Sequence record: MK310184
DNA from: Phage NC-G
DNA length: 64,000 bases
Strand: one strand, 5' to 3'
Part shown: positions 1 to 12,459 of the stretch, piece by piece
Numbering within the stretch: the stretch's first letter is position 1
Layout: each line of letters starts with the position of its first letter
Notes under the pieces: generated by a model
Database searches by the model: none
Told to the model about the DNA's origin: nothing
Seen by the model: only the letters and a program-made list of their open reading frames with translations
Made by a program: the position numbers and the translations under genes

Positions 1-1560
1 GAAACCACTGCAGGAACTTCTAAAGTTTTGGCTGTAAGCCCTTCTGGTTTAAAATATGTAGTACAGACCGAAACCACTTGGGAAGCTACTGCGCTTCGTC
101 GTGGATTTGTTAAATTGACCGAAGGCGCTTTGACTTACTCAGGAAATAAAGTTACCGGTTCCGGTGTTAAATTTAACTCGGGTACAGGCCTTTATGAGAA
201 TGACGATACTGTTCTGAATGCAGCCAACTATCCTAAAACAGGTTATGCGGTTTCATCTTACGAGATGAATAAAACTTTACAGAACTTTTTACCTATAAAT
301 GCTACGGCGGTGAACTCCGAGAAATTGGATGGCCTGGATTCACTTCAGTTCATTCGTAGAGACGTCGACCAAACGGTTAATGGTTCTTTAACCCTGACCA
401 AACAATTGAACCTGGCGGCCCCTCTGGTGTCTTCTAGTACTGCTACATTTACGGATGTTACAGCTACTAATTCTACCTTTGGTACAGTGAACGTTGTTAA
501 CGGAACTAATAAATGGAAAATAACATCTCCATCTACCGGAACTACGTTAACTATCGGTGATACTACTAACGTATTAACCATGAACACTGCTACAGGTAAT
601 GTTGCTGCACTTAACAACCTTAGCGCGGGTAATGATGTTCAAGCCAAAAATAACTTTGTGTTAAATGGAAGAACTATCGCAACCACCACCGGTGAAGCTT
701 CTGGTGCTACATTGTCTTTAGGCGATAACTCACAGAATTTAGTGCTCAAAACTCTTGATGCTGGTAATATCATAGCAAATGGTGGCGGTGCATTTAAAGT
801 TCTTACTGAGAAAAACGCAGTAGAAATTGTAGACAGAAACTTTGTTAACCAAGCCGGTGATACAATGTCCGGTGTACTCCGTGTGAATGCTCCGGTTCGT
901 GTATTTGGTACTAAGCCTACTCTTGCTTCTCAGGTTCCTACTGCGGAAACAGTCGGCTTCTGGTCTGTTGATATCAATGACGAGGCCACTTATAGTAAGT
1001 TCCCTGGTTACTGGACTATGAAGACCAAACGTCAGGTTAATATCGATACGGTCCAAACTAAACCTGCTGGTGTTTCTGATGAGGTATGGAATGCTTCTGG
1101 TTGGTTAACGGAAACCGGTGCATTTAGTTCTCCAGCTATTCGTTATCGTAACGAAGACGGTAGTTTTGGTGATGAAGTTCTTGGTACGTCTGGCCAGAAA
1201 TTACGTGGCGCTTGGTTTGATTATTCTGTTCGTGATAAGGAAGTTAAATACCCGGGTACATTAACTCAGTTTGGTAATACGTTAGATTCATGTTATCAGG
1301 ATTGGGTGTGCTATCCTACAGGACTGAATGGCGGTACTATCCGTTACACCCGTACCTGGCAGAAGAATAAAAACGCATGGACTACGTTCTCAATGGTCTA
1401 TACGGCAGATAACCCTCCTTCTGCAGAAGATGTTGGTGCATTGCCTGCTGATAACGCTACAATGGGTAACATTACAATCCTTGATTGGTTGCGTATTGGT
1501 AACGTTCGCATTATTCCTGACCCGGTCACTAAATCCGTTAAGTTTGAGTGGATTGAATAA
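1..1560 (+). CDS. 34: Long tail fibre proximal subunit gp34, C-terminal 510 aa (5' end lies outside the window)
   Basis: Reading frame is open from base 1 (track ORF 28..1560 begins at a TTG); lies directly upstream of 35-36-37-38 in T4 order; Thr/Asn/Gly-rich fibre-like composition. Confidence 0.75.
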   Translation, partial: ETTAGTSKVLAVSPSGLKYVVQTETTWEATALRRGFVKLTEGALTYSGNKVTGSGVKFNSGTGLYENDDTVLNAANYPKTGYAVSSYEMNKTLQNFLPINATAVNSEKLDGLDSLQFIRRDVDQTVNGSLTLTKQLNLAAPLVSSSTATFTDVTATNSTFGTVNVVNGTNKWKITSPSTGTTLTIGDTTNVLTMNTATGNVAALNNLSAGNDVQAKNNFVLNGRTIATTTGEASGATLSLGDNSQNLVLKTLDAGNIIANGGGAFKVLTEKNAVEIVDRNFVNQAGDTMSGVLRVNAPVRVFGTKPTLASQVPTAETVGFWSVDINDEATYSKFPGYWTMKTKRQVNIDTVQTKPAGVSDEVWNASGWLTETGAFSSPAIRYRNEDGSFGDEVLGTSGQKLRGAWFDYSVRDKEVKYPGTLTQFGNTLDSCYQDWVCYPTGLNGGTIRYTRTWQKNKNAWTTFSMVYTADNPPSAEDVGALPADNATMGNITILDWLRIGNVRIIPDPVTKSVKFEWIE

Positions 1561-1568
1561 GAGGTATT

Positions 1569-2690
1569 ATGGAAAGATTTATGGCAGAATTTGGACAAGG
1601 ATATGTCCAGGTTCCTACATTATCTGAAAACAATGCTGTAAGGTATAAACTTAGTATAGCTGGTAGTTGTACTAAGTCTACTAAAAAGGCGTATGTTAAA
1701 TTTCAAGATGGGGACTTCGGTCCCCAGAATTTTCAAAATGGACTAAACCTTATAGAAATTGATGTTAGTGCCGAACCTAAAGTGGTGGCTAACAAAACTT
1801 ATAGCTTTACAAAAGATTTTGATGTTATCTCTGAAGCTTTTATTACTTACATAAGTTCAATACCAGCCAATAGAATAGTTTGTTTAGTATCTTCCGGTAG
1901 ATTAAATGCTTCACAGAAACTTATTGATTGGTTCCGTGCAGCTGGAAGTACCGCATTTCCATCTAAATGGCTAATAGACCGCTTCGAGCCGTCTTATTCG
2001 GCCTTTTATGTGTCTGGTAGAAATACTATAGTGATGGAACATGTCCTTTATAATGATGGGGTGTTTGTTGAAGATGTTTCTACACCGTTAGAAGTCGTTT
2101 TTGACGATATCAGTGATGTAGGCGGGACCGGGTATCCTATAAGAATAGTGGAAGATGAAAACACTTATCTAAGTAATGGTGGGGAGGAAATAAAACGTTT
2201 CCCTACTGAATCTCCTACTACTCCTTGCGCTGATTATAATATGAAGCCTGGAGAATTCTTTTACCTTAAATTCCAAATGATGTGTGACCAGGAATTAAAA
2301 GATTTAGGGACTTCTCAAATGTCTGTTAGATTTTTTGATTCTAATAATGCTTTAACCGGTACGGTAAATATGGAAGTCCCATCTAATGTCCCTGCCGGGT
2401 CTTGGATGACTTTTGAGCGGGTAATTGAAGTTCCTGCTAATACTGAAACATTTACATTGTATGCAAGAAAAACAGTGGCCGATGGAGTTGGCGGTGTACG
2501 TAATGTGATGTTTGGGGAAGTATCAGAGCCAGAATCACAGCCTAAATCGGCTGAATTTGGTGTAAATGGTATTCGTATGAATTTCGGTACCGAAACTAAG
2601 AATATGGGTACTACCATAGCCCAGTTATACGATAAAACAGGTACTAAACCGGGACAGGTTTGGGTGTCTGAATTTAGAGAAAAATATTAA
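1569..2690 (+). CDS. 35: Tail fibre hinge protein gp35
   Basis: 373 aa (T4 gp35 is 372 aa); synteny between 34 and 36. Confidence 0.75.
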   Translation: MERFMAEFGQGYVQVPTLSENNAVRYKLSIAGSCTKSTKKAYVKFQDGDFGPQNFQNGLNLIEIDVSAEPKVVANKTYSFTKDFDVISEAFITYISSIPANRIVCLVSSGRLNASQKLIDWFRAAGSTAFPSKWLIDRFEPSYSAFYVSGRNTIVMEHVLYNDGVFVEDVSTPLEVVFDDISDVGGTGYPIRIVEDENTYLSNGGEEIKRFPTESPTTPCADYNMKPGEFFYLKFQMMCDQELKDLGTSQMSVRFFDSNNALTGTVNMEVPSNVPAGSWMTFERVIEVPANTETFTLYARKTVADGVGGVRNVMFGEVSEPESQPKSAEFGVNGIRMNFGTETKNMGTTIAQLYDKTGTKPGQVWVSEFREKY

Positions 2691-2712
2691 GGAACCTTCG
2701 GGTTCCTTTTTC
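2691..2712 (+). terminator. Rho-independent terminator after gene 35
   Basis: GGAACC-TTCG-GGTTCC hairpin followed by TTTTT. Confidence 0.6.
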
Positions 2713-2765
2713 GTTTTCTACAGCCATAAATATATAAAAGGCTATAACTCCCAAAGGAAACTCAA

Positions 2766-3413
2766 ATGGCAGATTTAAAATTAGGTTCTACAGCAGGAGG
2801 TTCGGTATTATGGCACCAAGGTAATTTCCCCTTAACGCCCGTATCAAATGACCTTCTTTACAAAACATATAAAGTTTACACCGAGTATAATAAACCTCAA
2901 GCAGTTGATAACGATTTCGTTTCAAAAGCTAACGGTGGTAATTATCAGAACAACGTGTATTTTGAAAAAGGTTTGACCTTTAATGATACTAATGGATATG
3001 GTATTAAATTAGGAGCAAGAACAGGTGGAGCCCCGTTCACAGCTTCTTTCCGTATTAAAGGTGCTTTTGGATATGAAACGGAAGACGGTACTCCGTTTGT
3101 GATATTTGACCCAAGTACAGTAGTGGGTGCTAAACGTCTTACCGTAATGGGTGATTCATTATTCCGCCAAGTATATGATGAATCGGGCCGCGTATTCAGC
3201 CCTGGCAACACCCCTACTAAGGCCCAAGTTGGATTGTCATTAGTAGATAACGCAAAACAGGTCCAAATAAATAATACTAATATGCAAACCATGACTGGAG
3301 TACTTGCTGCTCCTAACTTCATTTCATTAAATCCGGCCTCTGACGCAGGACATGTTCCGCGTTTCGACCAGATTGTTATTAAAGATTCTATCCAAGATTT
3401 TGGTTATTATTAA
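2766..3413 (+). CDS. 36: Small distal tail fibre subunit gp36
   Basis: 215 aa (T4 gp36 is 221 aa); synteny. Confidence 0.75.
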   Translation: MADLKLGSTAGGSVLWHQGNFPLTPVSNDLLYKTYKVYTEYNKPQAVDNDFVSKANGGNYQNNVYFEKGLTFNDTNGYGIKLGARTGGAPFTASFRIKGAFGYETEDGTPFVIFDPSTVVGAKRLTVMGDSLFRQVYDESGRVFSPGNTPTKAQVGLSLVDNAKQVQINNTNMQTMTGVLAAPNFISLNPASDAGHVPRFDQIVIKDSIQDFGYY

Positions 3414-3421
3414 GAGGCATT

Positions 3422-6400
3422 ATGGCTACTTTAAAACAGATACAATTTAAAAGAAGTAAAGTAGCTGGTGTACGTCCTACGCCAGCGCAGTTGGCTGAAG
3501 GCGAGCTGGCTATTAACTTAAAAGACCGTTTGTTATTTACCAAAGATGACACTGGAGCGATTATCGACCTTGGCTTTGCTAAAGGTGGTAATATTGACGG
3601 TAACGTTATCCATAAAGGAAATTACACCCAGACAGGCGATTACGCCCTAAATGGTACCTTTACCCAAACCGGCGATTTTAATTTAACCGGTATTGCTCGT
3701 GTAACTCGTGATATTATTGCCGCAGGTCAGATATTGACCCACGGTGGCGAACTTATTTCTAAGAGTGCCTCAACTTCTCACCTTCGTTTCTTTGATGGCA
3801 ATGACCGTGAACGTGGTATTATCTTTTCTCCTAATAATGCAGGAGCAACCAACCAAGTAGTTAATATTCGAGTACAAGATTATTCTACTGCAAGCGAAAG
3901 CACTTATGCATTTTCAGGCAGTGGTTTGTTCACTTCACCTGAAGTATCAGCATGGAAATCTATTTCATCTCCACAAATTCTGACCGATAAAGTTATTACA
4001 AACGGGAAGAAGGCAGGCGATTATGATATCTATTCAATGGCTGATAATAGCCCATTGTCTGAAAGCGAAACAGCTATTAACCACCTTCGTGTTATGCGAA
4101 ATGCCGTAGGTGCTGGTGTATTCCATGAAGTTAAAGATAATGACGGGTTAACCTGGTATGCTGGAGATGGATTGGACGCTTATCTTTGGTCATTTACATG
4201 GTCAGGTGGATTGAAAGCGGGTCATTCCATGTCTGTTGGTCTTCCAGGTGGCCCTAAAGGATATTCTGAATTAGGAACAGCTTCAATTGCTCTTGGTGAT
4301 AATAATACCGGATTTAAATGGCATCAGGATGGATATTTCCATACAGTAAACAACGGCACAAGAACTTTCATCTACGGGCCGGAAGAAACACAAAGCCTTA
4401 GAAAAATGGTTATGGGCTATTCTCCGGATGGGGTTCTTATGACAACGCCGCCGGCAGAAAATTATGCCTTAGCTACTGTTGTCACTTATCATGATAATAA
4501 CGCGTATGGTGATGGTCAAACTCTTTTAGGTTATTATCAAGGTGGTAATTATCACCATTATTTCCGTGGTAAGGGTACTACAAACATTAACACCGCCGGT
4601 GGTTTGTTGGTTACTCCTGGTAATATTGATGTCGTTGGTGGTTCAGTTAATATTGATGGCCGTAATAACAACTCGGTTTTGCTTTTTAAAGGTTATACTG
4701 CTGGCCAGAGCTCTGTTGATAATATGTCTATTGCTGTATGGGGTAACACCTTTAACACGGTAGACGGCTTTCGTAAAAACGTGATGGAAATATCTGATGG
4801 TATTAGCTGGATGCATTATATTCAGCGTAATAAAGATAATACCATTGAGGCCGTATTAAATGGTCAACAAACTATTAACGAAAATCTTGTTGTCAAAAAA
4901 GATATTTTAGTTGATAAGGCGGTCCACACCGCCGGCGAAATTACTACAAGTGCCGTTAATGGGCTCCGCATCTGGAACGCAGATTATGGAGCCATTTTTA
5001 GACGTTCAGAAGAAAGTCTTCATATTATTCCAACTGCTTATGGCGAAGGCAAAAATGGCGATATCGGTCCACTTCGCCCGTTTAGTATGGCTTTAGATAC
5101 TGGTAAAGTTACTATTCCAGATTTACAATCAAAATACAATACGATCACTGCGAACGGCTATATTAAATTTGTTGGCCATGGTGCAGGCGCTGGTGGTTAT
5201 GATATTCAATATGCTCAAGCAGCTCCTGTTTTCCAGGAAATTGATGATGATGCTGTAAGCAAATATTATCCTATTGTTAAGCAAAAATTCTTACAAGGAA
5301 AAGCTGTTTGGTCTTTAGGTACTGAAATTAATTCTGGGACTTTTGTTTTGCACCATCTTAAAGAAGACGGGACCCAGGGTCATACCTCAAGATTTAATGC
5401 CGATGGTACAGTTAATTTCCCTGATAACGTGCAGGTTGGCGGTGGTGAAGCTACTATTGCTCGTAATGGTAACATCTTCTCTGATATTTGGAAAGTATTT
5501 ACCTCTGCCGGTGATATAACTAACATTCACGATGCTATTGCCTCTCGTGTTGCTAAAGAAGGCGATACAATGACAGGTAAGCTGACTATTGCCGCTGCGG
5601 ATGATGCTTTATTGATTAAAGCCCCGAATGCCAATAATAGTTCTCATATCCGTTCAGAAGTCGCCGGTTCTAATAGCTGGTTTGTTGGTAAAGGCGGTGA
5701 AAGTGATACGGTATCTTTTTATAACTACAAAACAACAACCGGTCTAGATTTGAGTGATAATGGAGTAATTTCATTTAGTCCTAAATCATTTAATTTAGCT
5801 CAAATGAGTGAAAACCGCCTGTGGATTAATGGAACAAGATGGGTTGCCACAAATCCAGGCGCTATTAGCGGACAATTCGCACTTGAGGCTCCTTTATTTG
5901 TAGAACACGGCTACCTGAATGGTAACGTTTATTACCCGATTGTTAAAGGCCGAAGTTCTTCTGCAGGGTTTGGATACACGTCCTCCGTAGAGCTAGGTAC
6001 TTTACGCAGTGGTAATGCGGACTGGGCCACTGGTTGTATAATTGTTCGTTCAGCTGAAAATACACCAGAACAAGGACATCCTGCAGCGGTTTATCAATTT
6101 AAGGCCAACGGCCAGTTTAGTTCCCCGGGAAGAATTGTTTCAGGATGGACAGGTATGGGTGTAGGTGTTGAACCCGCCTGGACTACGCCGTGTATTGCTA
6201 TTGGCGACAATGACACTGGATTGCTCTGGGAAAGCGATGGCGTCTACAACATGTATGCTAACGGGCAAGGTGTATTCAGTATTCGAGCCGGACTTGCTCA
6301 GACATTCGGTGGTGTTAACTTACACTGTAATGCAGGTATGTATGTTCGTGATAACATTGATGTTAACGACGTTTATATTCGTTCTGATATTCGTTGTAAG

Positions 6401-6700
6401 TCGGAAATTAAGCTTATCGAGAATGCCCAAGAGAAATCTAAACTCTTAGGCGGTTATACTTATCTGCTTAAAAACTCTGTCACAGATGAAGTTAAACCGT
6501 CTGCCGGTTTAATTGCCCAGGAAGTTCAAGAAGTATTGCCTGAACTTGTGACCGAAGATAAAGAGACTGGCTTACTTCGTTTAAACTATAACGGTATTAT
6601 CGGTTTAAATACTGCTACTATCAACGAGCATACTGACGAAATCAAGGAATTGAAATCTGAAATTGCTGAGTTGAAAGCATTAATTAAATCATTATTATAA
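3422..6700 (+). CDS. 37: Large distal tail fibre subunit gp37 with C-terminal intramolecular-chaperone-like domain
   Basis: 1092 aa; N-terminus [13 protein letters not shown]...[10 protein letters not shown] matches the T4 gp37 N-terminus from memory; the last ~110 aa resemble an S74-type self-cleaving chaperone domain. Confidence 0.9.
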
Positions 6701-6703
6701 GAA

Positions 6704-6719
6704 AGGGCCTTCGGGCCCT
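6704..6719 (+). promoter_or_regulatory. GC-rich hairpin with UUCG loop between genes 37 and 38
   Basis: AGGGCC-TTCG-GGCCCT immediately followed by the GGAGG ribosome-binding site of gene 38; no T-run. Confidence 0.4.
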
Positions 6720-6729
6720 GGAGGTTTTT

Positions 6730-7509
6730 ATGGCAGTAGTAGGAATTCCTGGTTGGATTGGAACTTCAGCGGTTGCTGAAACAGGCCAGCGTTGGATGTC
6801 AGCGGCCTCTAGAGAATTACGTCTAGGGAACCCATCTTGGATGTCCCAATTTGCTGGTCGCTCAAGAGAAATTATTCACACACTTGGCGCCGACCATAAC
6901 TTTAATGGGCAATGGTTTAGAGACCGTTGTTTTGAAGCCGGCGGTGCTCCTATAGTGTTTAATATCACAGGCAACTTAGTATCATATACTAAAGATGTTC
7001 CGTTGTTCTTTATGTACGGTGATACCCCTAACGAATATGTTACTTTGAATATTCATGGTGGTGTTCATATGTGGGGCCGAGGTGGCAACGGTACAGTAAA
7101 TGGAAGCCCAGGCACTAATGGTGGTGACGTAATCCAAAATGATATTGGTGGACGACTTCGCATTTGGAATTATGGCGTGATAGCCTCCGGTGGTGGTGGT
7201 GGCGGTGCCGCATCATTACAGAATAGTTGGCCTGCAAATGCTACAGCAGGTGGCGGCGGCGGCAGGCCATTTGGTCTCGGCGGTGGTGGTGTTAATTGGC
7301 CAGGCGGCAATGCTAGTTATGATGGTCCAGGTGGCGGTGGTAATGCAAGCCAATTTGGCGGCGGCAATGGCGGTGATGCTGGAGGCGCTGGCGGCGATGG
7401 ATGGGGTAATCACTTATCCAGGTCGGGTGGTGGTGCTCCTGGTAGAGCAGTATTCGGTTCCTCTCCATCATGGGGCGCTACAGGCACCATCTACGGCTCT
7501 TGGTTATAA
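6730..7509 (+). CDS. 38: T2-type tail fibre adhesin gp38 with glycine-rich motifs
   Basis: 259 aa; runs of GGGGG alternating with short variable segments in the C-terminal half; synteny after gene 37. Confidence 0.8.
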
Positions 7510-7525
7510 TACGAAAGTATTAAAT

Positions 7526-7533
7526 TATAAATA
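7526..7533 (+). promoter_or_regulatory. T4-type late promoter for holin gene t
   Basis: Exact TATAAATA about 19 nt upstream of the t start codon. Confidence 0.6.
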
Positions 7534-7551
7534 TCTTTAAAGGAGAAAAGT

Positions 7552-8205
7552 ATGGAACCAAAAGTAGGATTTTCATTATCAGACCTACTTTTTGGACTTC
7601 TTGATAGAATTTTTAAAGATACTTCTTCCGGGAAAGTTGTTTTTTCCCGGGTCCTAGTCGTAATATTATTGTTCTTTATGGCATTAGTTTGGTATAAAGG
7701 CGAGCATATTCTAAACTTTTATAAAGAGACAACTTATGCCTCTTATACTGAAATGATTAGACAAGACCAGGACAATAGATTTAAAATTGCGGCTATCGAG
7801 CAGCTCCGAATAGTGCATTCTTCTTCAGGCGCAGACTTCACAGCAATATATTCTTTTAGACCAACCAACATGAATTATTTTGTGGACATGGTTGCTTATG
7901 AGGGTAAATTACCGGAAACGGTAGACGCAAAAAATACGGGAGGATTTCCGATTGACAAAACGTCAGTAGAGTATATGGCGGGAGTTAACGGAAACTATTT
8001 TGAATCAAGTACAGAAACTGTGTTCCTTCCTACAAAGAAGAAAACCCAATTCACGTATATGTTTTCATGCCCGTTTTTTAATTTGGATAACATCTATGCC
8101 GGCTCGATATCATTATACTGGTATGACATCAAACCGGATTTAGGATTTCCTAGACTTTCGTCTATGTGTGGTCAGGCTGGGAGGACATTAGGTCGAACTC
8201 GTTAA
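7552..8205 (+). CDS. t: Holin T
   Basis: 217 aa; LLFGLLDR...VVILLFFMALVWY motif and length match T4 holin (218 aa) from memory. Confidence 0.9.
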   Translation: MEPKVGFSLSDLLFGLLDRIFKDTSSGKVVFSRVLVVILLFFMALVWYKGEHILNFYKETTYASYTEMIRQDQDNRFKIAAIEQLRIVHSSSGADFTAIYSFRPTNMNYFVDMVAYEGKLPETVDAKNTGGFPIDKTSVEYMAGVNGNYFESSTETVFLPTKKKTQFTYMFSCPFFNLDNIYAGSISLYWYDIKPDLGFPRLSSMCGQAGRTLGRTR

Positions 8206-11079: not shown

Positions 11080-12459
11080 TCATAGAGCCTCCAAATCTTT
11101 AACATACTCAGTTACAACATCAGTGGTTTTCCAGTATTGATGCTCTTCTTTCTTGGCCTTGGCTTCCAAAGCCAGTTTCTTAGCTTCATCGGACGTGATA
11201 TGGAAAATGTTCATTGCTACGAGTTTATCGGCATATTCACCATAGACTTTATTGCTGGCCAATTCTTCGGTTAAAACCTTACGGGTCTTACCTTGGATAA
11301 CCACTACACCATCAATAACATCTTTAATGAATGTAGCTTTGGCCAATGCCAGTTTGAAAGCTTCTTCGGTTTCGATGATTTTACCATCAATACGTTTTTG
11401 TACAAAGGTCTTACGGACCTCAACGAAATCACGAATCAGTTCAACTACATCTTCGTAAACCTTAAGTTTACCTTTTTCATTAATGACGGTCAGGTTTTGC
11501 GAACGACGTTCGATTAACCCAAAGTCCTTCATGATTTTTTCGTGCTTCTTATTTTCTTCAGTAGGCAATTCGTATTCTTTACGAATCTTAACCTTGAAGC
11601 CGAAACCATTCTCGTCACAGTCGTCATCATACGTGATATACCCTTTGTCTTCTAAAGGGTCCAGAACCTTAGCTACATACGTTTCACGGTCATATTTGTA
11701 CGGGATTTCTGTGATATGCATTTGGGTTCGAGATGTGAATTTATACGTTCCACGAATCTCATAACTACCCGGTTCAATCTCAACCACATCACCACGGAAT
11801 TCCGGATAAGCCACCTTAGGCTTGGTTACGCGTTTTTCTTGAAGAACCTGCAATACAGCTTTCTTAACAGAATCAAAACTATGAGGAAGAATATTAGTTG
11901 CATAACCAGTTGCAATACCGGAAATACCATTAAGAAGAACAGTAGGAATAATAGGCAGATAAAAAGCTGGTGGCTTATGTTCAACATCCGCATGAACCGG
12001 AGCATATTCTGTATCCTTATAAACCTTTGCGAAATTAGTTCCAATACGTGCAAAAATATAACGAGAGGCTGCAGCCTTTTGAACCAAACGAGAACCAAAG
12101 TTACCTTGCCCATCCAACAGTGGGAAGTTGTTGTTCCATGTGTTAGCCATCAAAGCACCTGCTTCCTGAGCAGAGCCTTCACCATGGTGATATCCAAGGT
12201 CGGCTACACCGCCTGCAATAGAAGCTAGTTTGTGGAATTTTTCTTTATTACCACGAGCCATATCAAGACAACGAGCAACTACAAAACGTTGTACAGGTTT
12301 AAAACCGTCAATCATATTTGGAATGGCGCGGTTTTCGACAGTATACATTGCGTAAGCCAGCGCTTCGTTGTCGATAATGCTTTTTAAGTCACGACGAGTA
12401 AAAGCGTCATCGTAAACATCTAAGGATTGTTTAAAAAGGGTATCAATTACATCAGCCAT
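11080..12459 (-). CDS. 52: DNA topoisomerase II medium subunit gp52
   Basis: 459 aa; GyrA-like N-terminus ...AMYTVENRAIPNMIDGFKPVQR...; synteny. Confidence 0.9.
   Translation of the reverse strand: MADVIDTLFKQSLDVYDDAFTRRDLKSIIDNEALAYAMYTVENRAIPNMIDGFKPVQRFVVARCLDMARGNKEKFHKLASIAGGVADLGYHHGEGSAQEAGALMANTWNNNFPLLDGQGNFGSRLVQKAAASRYIFARIGTNFAKVYKDTEYAPVHADVEHKPPAFYLPIIPTVLLNGISGIATGYATNILPHSFDSVKKAVLQVLQEKRVTKPKVAYPEFRGDVVEIEPGSYEIRGTYKFTSRTQMHITEIPYKYDRETYVAKVLDPLEDKGYITYDDDCDENGFGFKVKIRKEYELPTEENKKHEKIMKDFGLIERRSQNLTVINEKGKLKVYEDVVELIRDFVEVRKTFVQKRIDGKIIETEEAFKLALAKATFIKDVIDGVVVIQGKTRKVLTEELASNKVYGEYADKLVAMNIFHITSDEAKKLALEAKAKKEEHQYWKTTDVVTEYVKDLEAL

Follow-up and report, generated by a model that had tools for sequence, protein, structure and literature searches.

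We analysed a 64,000-nucleotide stretch of Phage NC-G (record MK310184; "the window" below means this whole stretch), and within it the interval 6365–7509, which begins at codon 982 of gene 37 and ends with the last base of the gene 38 stop codon. The two genes encode gp37 and gp38, the distal subunit and the tip adhesin of the long tail fibre. The backbone of the window is ~95–96% identical in nucleotide sequence to JS98/JS10-like Dhakavirus over 24 kb of replication genes, and on sequence grounds we assign the window to a JS98-like Dhakavirus. NCBI already holds the exact proteins, gp37 as QBP35590.1 and gp38 as QBP35591.1, each named "tail fibers protein [Phage NC-G]"; as the deposited records say only "tail fibers protein", the assignments made here have value as annotation. 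We conclude that genes 37 and 38 very likely encode a long-tail-fibre distal tip module of the T2/S16 type, and nothing that we found contradicts this architecture. The arrangement itself is already known: descriptions of it go back to the 1980s, and structures were solved in 2018 and in 2026. Added here are a residue-level prediction of the cleavage site in gp37 (Arg987/Ser988), domain and loop boundaries for the adhesin, and a receptor call, the porin OmpF, with a caveat. The features on which the argument rests are as follows.

3422–6700, plus strand: gene 37, long tail fibre distal subunit precursor, 1092 residues (phrog_1699 end to end, expectation value (E) 0; Pfam Gp34_trimer, gp37_trimer and Peptidase_S74)
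3422–6382, plus strand: predicted mature gp37, residues 1–987, ending in the NDVYIR tip strand (motif position)
6383–6697, plus strand: intramolecular chaperone (Peptidase_S74), residues 988–1092, 105 residues (Pfam, S16 alignment)
6383–6385, plus strand: codon (TCT) of Ser988, the predicted autocleavage nucleophile (start of the Pfam S74 model; S16 and MYRF alignments)
6398–6400, plus strand: codon of Lys993, the predicted catalytic partner of Ser988 (motif position)
6730–7509, plus strand: gene 38, tail-fibre tip adhesin, 259 residues (Pfam GP38 and Gp38_N; phrog_2056; PDB 9v85 and 6f45_D)
6730–6864, plus strand: N-terminal attachment domain of gp38, residues 1–45, with docking tryptophans W9, W22 and W37 (Gp38_N; alignment of 12 adhesins)
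7075–7449, plus strand: receptor-specificity region of gp38, residues 116–240, in which glycine-rich motifs alternate with hypervariable loops (alignment)

The PHROG labels of the two proteins are 'long tail fiber protein distal subunit' for gp37 and 'tail fiber protein; host specificity' for gp38. No NCBIfam model matched either of them. In Pfam, the matches to GP38, Gp38_N and Peptidase_S74 all exceeded the curated cut-offs, and their E-values indicate that the glycine runs of gp38 and the C-terminus of gp37 are family signatures and not products of chance.

The C-terminal domain of gp37 and its predicted cleavage site

The original prediction, made from the letters of the window, had likened the gp37 C-terminus to a chaperone domain that is auto-cleaved from fibre proteins. 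The C-terminal strings that it quoted are present, within residues 987–1050, and three lines of evidence sustain the likeness: a Peptidase_S74 match that starts at Ser988, an SD.R.K motif, and the alignment of this site with that of phage S16. The Peptidase_S74 model (PF13884) scored 46.9 bits against a cut-off of 22 (E 3.3e-12), its positions 1–58 covering residues 988–1044, with model position 1 falling exactly on Ser988. The domain lies at the extreme C-terminus, with the Gp34_trimer and gp37_trimer domains upstream. The junction reads NDVYIR^S988-D-I-R-C-K993, the caret marking the predicted cut; the S-D-x-R-x-K motif is present once, with the lysine five residues after the serine. Each of the 13 gp37 proteins that we compared has a single copy of SD.R.K. 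In 12 of these DVYIR or a close variant precedes the motif, T2 and T6 among them with the junction (D/N)VYIR^SD.R.K; the exception is S16, which has DLNVS before the cut instead of the DVYIR of NC-G.

Residues 922–1091 of gp37 aligned with the S16 gp37 chain of PDB 6F45 (E 1.7e-30), placing SDIRCK over SDRRIK. When the chaperone domain alone was searched as a single sequence against the PDB, with E-values up to 10 accepted, the only matches were S16 gp37, the MYRF auto-processing domain (7dc3; weak, E 0.028, with ADLRAK at the same motif) and, spuriously, dystrophin; no endosialidase chain was among them. Outside the T-even fibres, similarity to the gp37 chaperone is thus only remote. What the endosialidase-type S74 chaperones and the MYRF domain have in common with gp37 is a C-terminal, trimer-dependent domain with a Ser-Lys dyad in an S-D-x-x-x-K context.

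Processing at this site is documented in relatives. S16 gp37 is cut between the serines of DLNVS^SDRRIKK, releasing its last 113 residues, and the same cut after DVYIR has been predicted for the fPS phages (both PMC7917993). C-terminal processing of T2 and T6 gp37 is long established (PMC3157838, citing Drexler et al. 1986). Given the start of the S74 model on Ser988, the single motif, the S16 alignment, the published processing in S16 and T2/T6 and the weak MYRF match, NC-G gp37 is very probably cut, as its relatives are, between Arg987 and Ser988. This would yield a mature gp37 of 987 residues and a chaperone of 105 residues, compared with 112 (record) or 113 (published) in S16. The NDVYIR tip strand left at the new C-terminus should then form the docking face for gp38, a role assigned to it from the S16 structure 6F45 (PMC6851490, PMC7917993).

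The chaperone domain was 100% identical to those of JS98 and pEC-M719, 94% to that of Bas47, 48% to that of S16, and 32–36% to those of T2 and T6. Among Dhakavirus relatives it was 99–100% identical, while the last 100 residues of the adjacent mature shaft were 51–95% identical, which suggests purifying selection on the chaperone domain.

The gp38 adhesin and its predicted place at the fibre tip

The adhesin is covered by two Pfam families over nearly its whole length. GP38 (PF05268) matched residues 47–259 with all of its positions (1–218 of 218; 275.5 bits, E 4.8e-82), and Gp38_N (PF21721) matched residues 1–42 (74.2 bits, E 8.2e-21). Two crystal structures also aligned with the protein: the receptor-binding domain of PP01 gp38 (9v85) with residues 40–257 (E 4.2e-73), and S16 gp38 (6f45_D) with residues 8–259 (E 2.6e-50). 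In both structures a beta-helix bears a polyglycine-II sandwich, from which recognition loops protrude (PMC12892980 for PP01, PMC6851490 for S16). A single-sequence AlphaFold2 model of gp38 reached a predicted local distance difference test (pLDDT) of 32.5 and a predicted template modelling score (pTM) of 0.18; we discarded it, and the fold rests on the alignment to the two crystal structures.

The original prediction had counted at least four poly-glycine runs in a 259-residue gp38. The open reading frame at 6730–7509 does encode 259 residues, and the runs number six: G6 at residues 154–159, G5 at 174–178, G4 at 184–187, G4 at 201–204, G3 at 210–212 and G3 at 233–235. Glycine accounts for 26% of all residues and for 37% of residues 110–259, and the local guanine-plus-cytosine content rises to 0.54 because of this richness. 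In an alignment of 12 adhesins, G154–158 and G174–178-R-P were invariant and the segments between them variable.

At the other end of the protein, W9, W22 and W37 were invariant across the same 12 adhesins, which include those of S16, T2 and T6. In S16 gp38 three tryptophans plug into the gp37 tip (PMC6851490), and those of NC-G are their counterparts. The attachment domain that holds them (residues 1–45) was 98–100% identical to those of Dhakavirus and Mosigvirus relatives and 56–80% identical to those of Tequatrovirus adhesins (64–78% for T2 and T6).

To place the recognition loops we transferred the definitions of loops A–E from the PP01 paper (PMC12892980) through the alignment of gp38 with PP01.

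Loop A, residues 122–127: TVNGSP
Loop B, residues 163–172: contains P168 and A169
Loop C, residues 186–190: GGVNW
Loop D, residues 205–209: NASQF
Loop E, residues 225–231: WGNHLSR

The closest known systems share most of this plan. S16 (PDB 6F45; Dunne et al. 2018) has the SDxRxK motif, three docking tryptophans, hypervariable distal loops and the gene order 37-38-t in common with NC-G; its gp37 forms a trimer whose C-terminal chaperone cleaves itself off, and its single gp38 cap has a polyglycine-II sandwich, all of which we predict for NC-G too. By analogy, a single gp38 to three gp37 chains would be expected in NC-G as well. PP01 (9V85; mBio 2026) is the best match among solved structures, with the beta-helix and polyglycine-II sandwich that we predict for NC-G gp38, but its loop sequences are unlike those of NC-G throughout, and it binds OmpC of O157 through loop E (PMC12892980). 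T2 and T6 (Riede, Drexler, Henning 1985–87; Trojet et al. 2011) have the classical form of the arrangement predicted for NC-G: a processed gp37 is capped by an adhesin of ~260 residues that has five glycine-rich motifs and four hypervariable segments. The deposited RefSeq gp38 of Bp7 (3591–4382) is of the OmpF type up to about residue 222 and then wholly divergent, with no trace of the conserved C-terminal motif, which suggests a frameshift either in the record or in the phage.

Two other readings of the architecture have to be weighed against a cleaved gp37 capped by an adhesin. Several records of close relatives carry the label 'distal long tail fiber assembly catalyst' or 'chaperone', as would suit a T4-like arrangement in which gp38 is an assembly chaperone only, absent from the virion, and the gp37 C-terminus binds the receptor. 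Such labels are legacy annotation, however: the RefSeq note on T4 gp38 calls the gp38 of the T2 subfamily unrelated and the adhesin. NC-G gp38 matches two tip-adhesin crystal structures and showed no similarity to the T4 gp38 chaperone (best BLASTP E 1.0). Nor did the last 292 residues of gp37 show any to the T4 gp37 tip (E 0.83), and no T4 gp37 chain was among the PDB matches of gp37. By Pfam, gp37 lacks Collar (PF07484) and Phage_fiber (PF03335), both of which are found in T4 gp37, which in turn lacks S74. With neither gp38 nor the gp37 tip similar to its T4 namesake, and with the domain sets reversed, we rejected a T4-type tip and regard it as extremely improbable. The original prediction had held both that the gp37 tip is not T4-like and that gp38 is an adhesin of the T2/T6 type; the absence of T4 similarity and of the two T4 domains agrees with the former, and the full-length family match, the PP01 and S16 structures and the lack of resemblance to T4 gp38 with the latter. 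By analogy with its relatives, gp38 would be a component of the virion.

It is also very improbable that the S74-like domain is a degenerate relic, left uncleaved on the fibre. Ser988 and Lys993 are intact at the canonical spacing, and the domain is nearly invariant among Dhakavirus relatives beside a far more variable shaft (99–100% vs 51–95%). An uncleaved domain would, moreover, sit on the surface that receives gp38 in the S16 structure. The reading that we prefer is therefore that of a gp37 relieved of its chaperone and capped by gp38.

Receptor specificity and modular exchange

An alignment with adhesins of known specificity had been proposed together with the original prediction as a check. 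We compared gp38 with such adhesins by identity over the specificity region (residues 116–240); JS98 is listed for reference.

Bas47 AlbertHofmann (Mosigvirus): 92.8%; OmpF, complemented knockout (PMC8594841)
fPS-2 (Tequatrovirus): 92.0%; OmpF plus lipopolysaccharide core (PMC7917993)
RB51 (Tequatrovirus): 92.0%; OmpF (bioRxiv 10.64898/2026.04.02.716166)
FL33 (Tequatrovirus): 90.4%; OmpF, with a TolC effect (PMC12032242)
JS98 (Dhakavirus): 69.6%
T2 (Tequatrovirus): 57.6%; FadL (PMC8594841)
LHE83 (Dhakavirus): 56.0%; OmpA (PMC10987938)
T6 (Tequatrovirus): 52.8%; Tsx (PMC8594841)
S16 (Gelderlandvirus): 47.2%; Salmonella OmpC (according to the reference list of PMC7917993)

The region groups with the four experimentally verified OmpF binders at 90.4–92.8% identity, and is 47–58% identical to the FadL, Tsx, OmpA and OmpC types represented by T2, T6, LHE83 and S16. 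The verified OmpF binders have exactly the same loops C and E. The residue that switches RB51 between OmpF and OmpW is also kept, RB51 Q206 corresponding to Q208 in loop D of NC-G gp38. Two independent studies, using trees and k-mer models, found that closely related gp38 proteins have a common receptor (one is bioRxiv 10.64898/2026.04.02.716166). That gp38 and not the gp37 tip sets host range is supported, by homology, by experiments on relatives (PMC3157838, PMC12032242, PMC7917993, bioRxiv 10.64898/2026.04.02.716166). In LHE83, anti-gp38 serum is reported to block adsorption (PMC10987938). From its relatives we thus predict that the primary receptor of NC-G gp38 is probably the E. coli porin OmpF.

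Several observations weigh against this call. Between 10 and 13 positions in residues 110–259 differ from each of the verified OmpF binders. The differences are S126, A161, P168, A169, G199, G203, N205, A206, A220 and L259. Recognition loops hold five of these: loop A has S126, loop B has P168 and A169, and loop D has N205 and A206. In RB51 a single loop-D substitution, Q206L, two residues from the position of A206, changes the receptor from OmpF to OmpW (bioRxiv 10.64898/2026.04.02.716166), and in the pairs T2/SV76 and T6/PST specificity was altered by one or two loop changes. The nearest gp38 relatives are 97–98.5% identical overall, and a literature search for receptor data on pEC-M719-6WT.2, UGJNEcP3, VR5, ECML-359, ESh24 and Phage NC-G itself yielded nothing usable.

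With the architecture unchanged, the primary receptor might accordingly be something other than OmpF, the variant loops A, B and D redirecting gp38 to OmpW, to an OmpF variant outside K-12, or to lipopolysaccharide as well. The five substitutions in mapped loops speak for such a shift, as do the single-residue switch in RB51 and the few-residue changes that altered or broadened the specificity of T2/SV76 and T6/PST; so does the dependence on lipopolysaccharide core or TolC, beside OmpF, in fPS-2, Bas47 and FL31/33/34 (PMC8594841, PMC12032242, PMC7917993). Yet the specificity region is 90–93% identical to those of four independent OmpF binders from two genera, the switch glutamine and loops C and E are retained, and the published trees and k-mer models give closely related gp38 proteins one receptor. 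We therefore regard a different primary receptor as unlikely, though worth bearing in mind. The allele at loops A, B and D is common to pEC-M719-6WT.2 and VR5, with small loop differences. That this Dhakavirus allele (loop A TVNGSP, loop D NASQF) differs in receptor specificity from its OmpF-dependent relatives, recognising for example a different small porin or an OmpF variant of particular strains, is unlikely; if true, it would be a second natural case of receptor switching by a few residues in this type of adhesin.

OmpF remains our preferred receptor. Should the phage be used in therapy or engineering, loss or repression of ompF would on this call be the likely route to resistance, and gp38 from about residue 116 onward would be the segment to swap.

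The fibre tip is modular. The gp38 attachment domain and the gp37 chaperone covary: both are 94–100% identical to those of Dhakavirus relatives and Bas47 (98% and 94%, respectively, for Bas47, which is of the same subtype), while against Tequatrovirus the attachment domain is 56–80% and the chaperone 30–61% identical. The specificity region crosses these subtypes. RB51, fPS-2 and FL33 have another subtype of gp37 C-terminus and gp38 N-terminus despite a specificity region 90–92% identical to that of NC-G. This pattern agrees with Trojet et al. (PMC3157838), who described "lock-and-key" subtypes and a specificity domain that can be exchanged. The locus thus illustrates the known modular design: the gp37 chaperone and its partner, the attachment domain of gp38, move as a pair that defines a Dhakavirus/Mosigvirus subtype, and the specificity region is common to Tequatroviruses of a different attachment subtype.

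A sliding comparison showed the locus to be a mosaic. JS98 is the likeness of gp36 and of the first part of gp37, and most of the remaining gp37, together with gp38, is closest to pEC-M719-6WT.2. For 3422–7509, megablast counted one phage record, outside the rows listed, with a piece at least 99% identical. Within gene 37, a block of ~150 base pairs at 5016–5165 was 91–95% identical to Mosigvirus AlbertHofmann and to Tequatrovirus fPS-2 and FL33, but 69–74% to JS98 and pEC-M719-6WT.2, and is apparently a short recombinant segment of the shaft.

We propose the following course of events at the fibre tip. gp37 would be produced as a precursor of 1092 residues. The last 105 of these, acting as an intramolecular chaperone, would nucleate the trimer of the beta-helical shaft. 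Ser988 and Lys993 would then mediate autoproteolysis at the bond between Arg987 and Ser988, which would free the chaperone and expose a flat trimeric tip of NDVYIR strands. A single gp38 would dock on this tip, its N-terminal domain contributing W9, W22 and W37. Its C-terminal half would form the polyglycine-II sandwich, with the glycine runs as scaffold and the hypervariable loops in contact with an outer-membrane protein, so that gp38 rather than gp37 would set the primary receptor, most probably OmpF.

Gene order, expression signals and other features of the window

Bases 1–8205 carry, on the plus strand, a T-even long-tail-fibre cluster in the order 34-35-36-37-38-t. Gene 38 sits directly after gene 37 and before t, a layout that was identical in 12 related loci. 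Besides genes 37 and 38, the cluster comprises the following.

28–1560, plus strand: gp34, C-terminal part (open reading frame list, Pfam, PHROG)
1569–2690, plus strand: gp35 (open reading frame list, Pfam, PHROG)
2766–3413, plus strand: gp36 (open reading frame list, Pfam, PHROG)
7552–8205, plus strand: holin gene t (Pfam Phage_holin_T, E 5.9e-67)

Candidate expression signals in and around these genes were as follows.

2725–2732: late-promoter box with one mismatch, CATAAATA, before gene 36
6604–6611: late-promoter box with one mismatch, TTTAAATA, within gene 37
6704–6719, plus strand: hairpin AGGGCC-UUCG-GGCCCU between the gene 37 stop codon and the gene 38 ribosome-binding site (folding energy -14.7 kcal/mol)
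6720–6724, plus strand: ribosome-binding site of gene 38, GGAGG
7526–7533, plus strand: exact T4-type late-promoter box TATAAATA, 19 nucleotides before the start codon of holin gene t

A separate late promoter for gene 38 was sought, and the gap between genes 37 and 38 contained no late-promoter box, the only one nearby being TTTAAATA within gene 37; from this we infer that genes 36, 37 and 38 are probably co-transcribed. The fibre transcription unit is bounded downstream by the exact box at 7526–7533, which suggests that t has its own late promoter. The hairpin at 6704–6719 is assigned on the strength of its C(UUCG)G motif, because the z-score of its folding was only -1.6. A second hairpin with a UUCG loop, at 2689–2708 after gene 35, looks like a terminator because a run of T follows it.

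No tRNA genes (ARAGORN) and no Rfam families at the gathering score were found across the whole window. Beyond the holin gene the early genes lie on the minus strand, the last being a 459-residue open reading frame at 11080–12459 that matches, by position, the topoisomerase gene annotated in related loci. The rest of the window is the usual T-even early and replication region, also on the minus strand. In gp35, residues 57–130 gave a marginal match to the Pfam family ILEI (interleukin-like EMT (epithelial–mesenchymal transition) inducer; E 3.4e-6, 27.9 bits against a cut-off of 27). The holin t was ~71–79% identical to those of JS98 and pEC-M719-6WT.2, compared with 98% to those of Dhakaviruses UGJNEcP3, IME281, EcWhh-1 and MN04; two divergent holin alleles therefore circulate in Dhakavirus.

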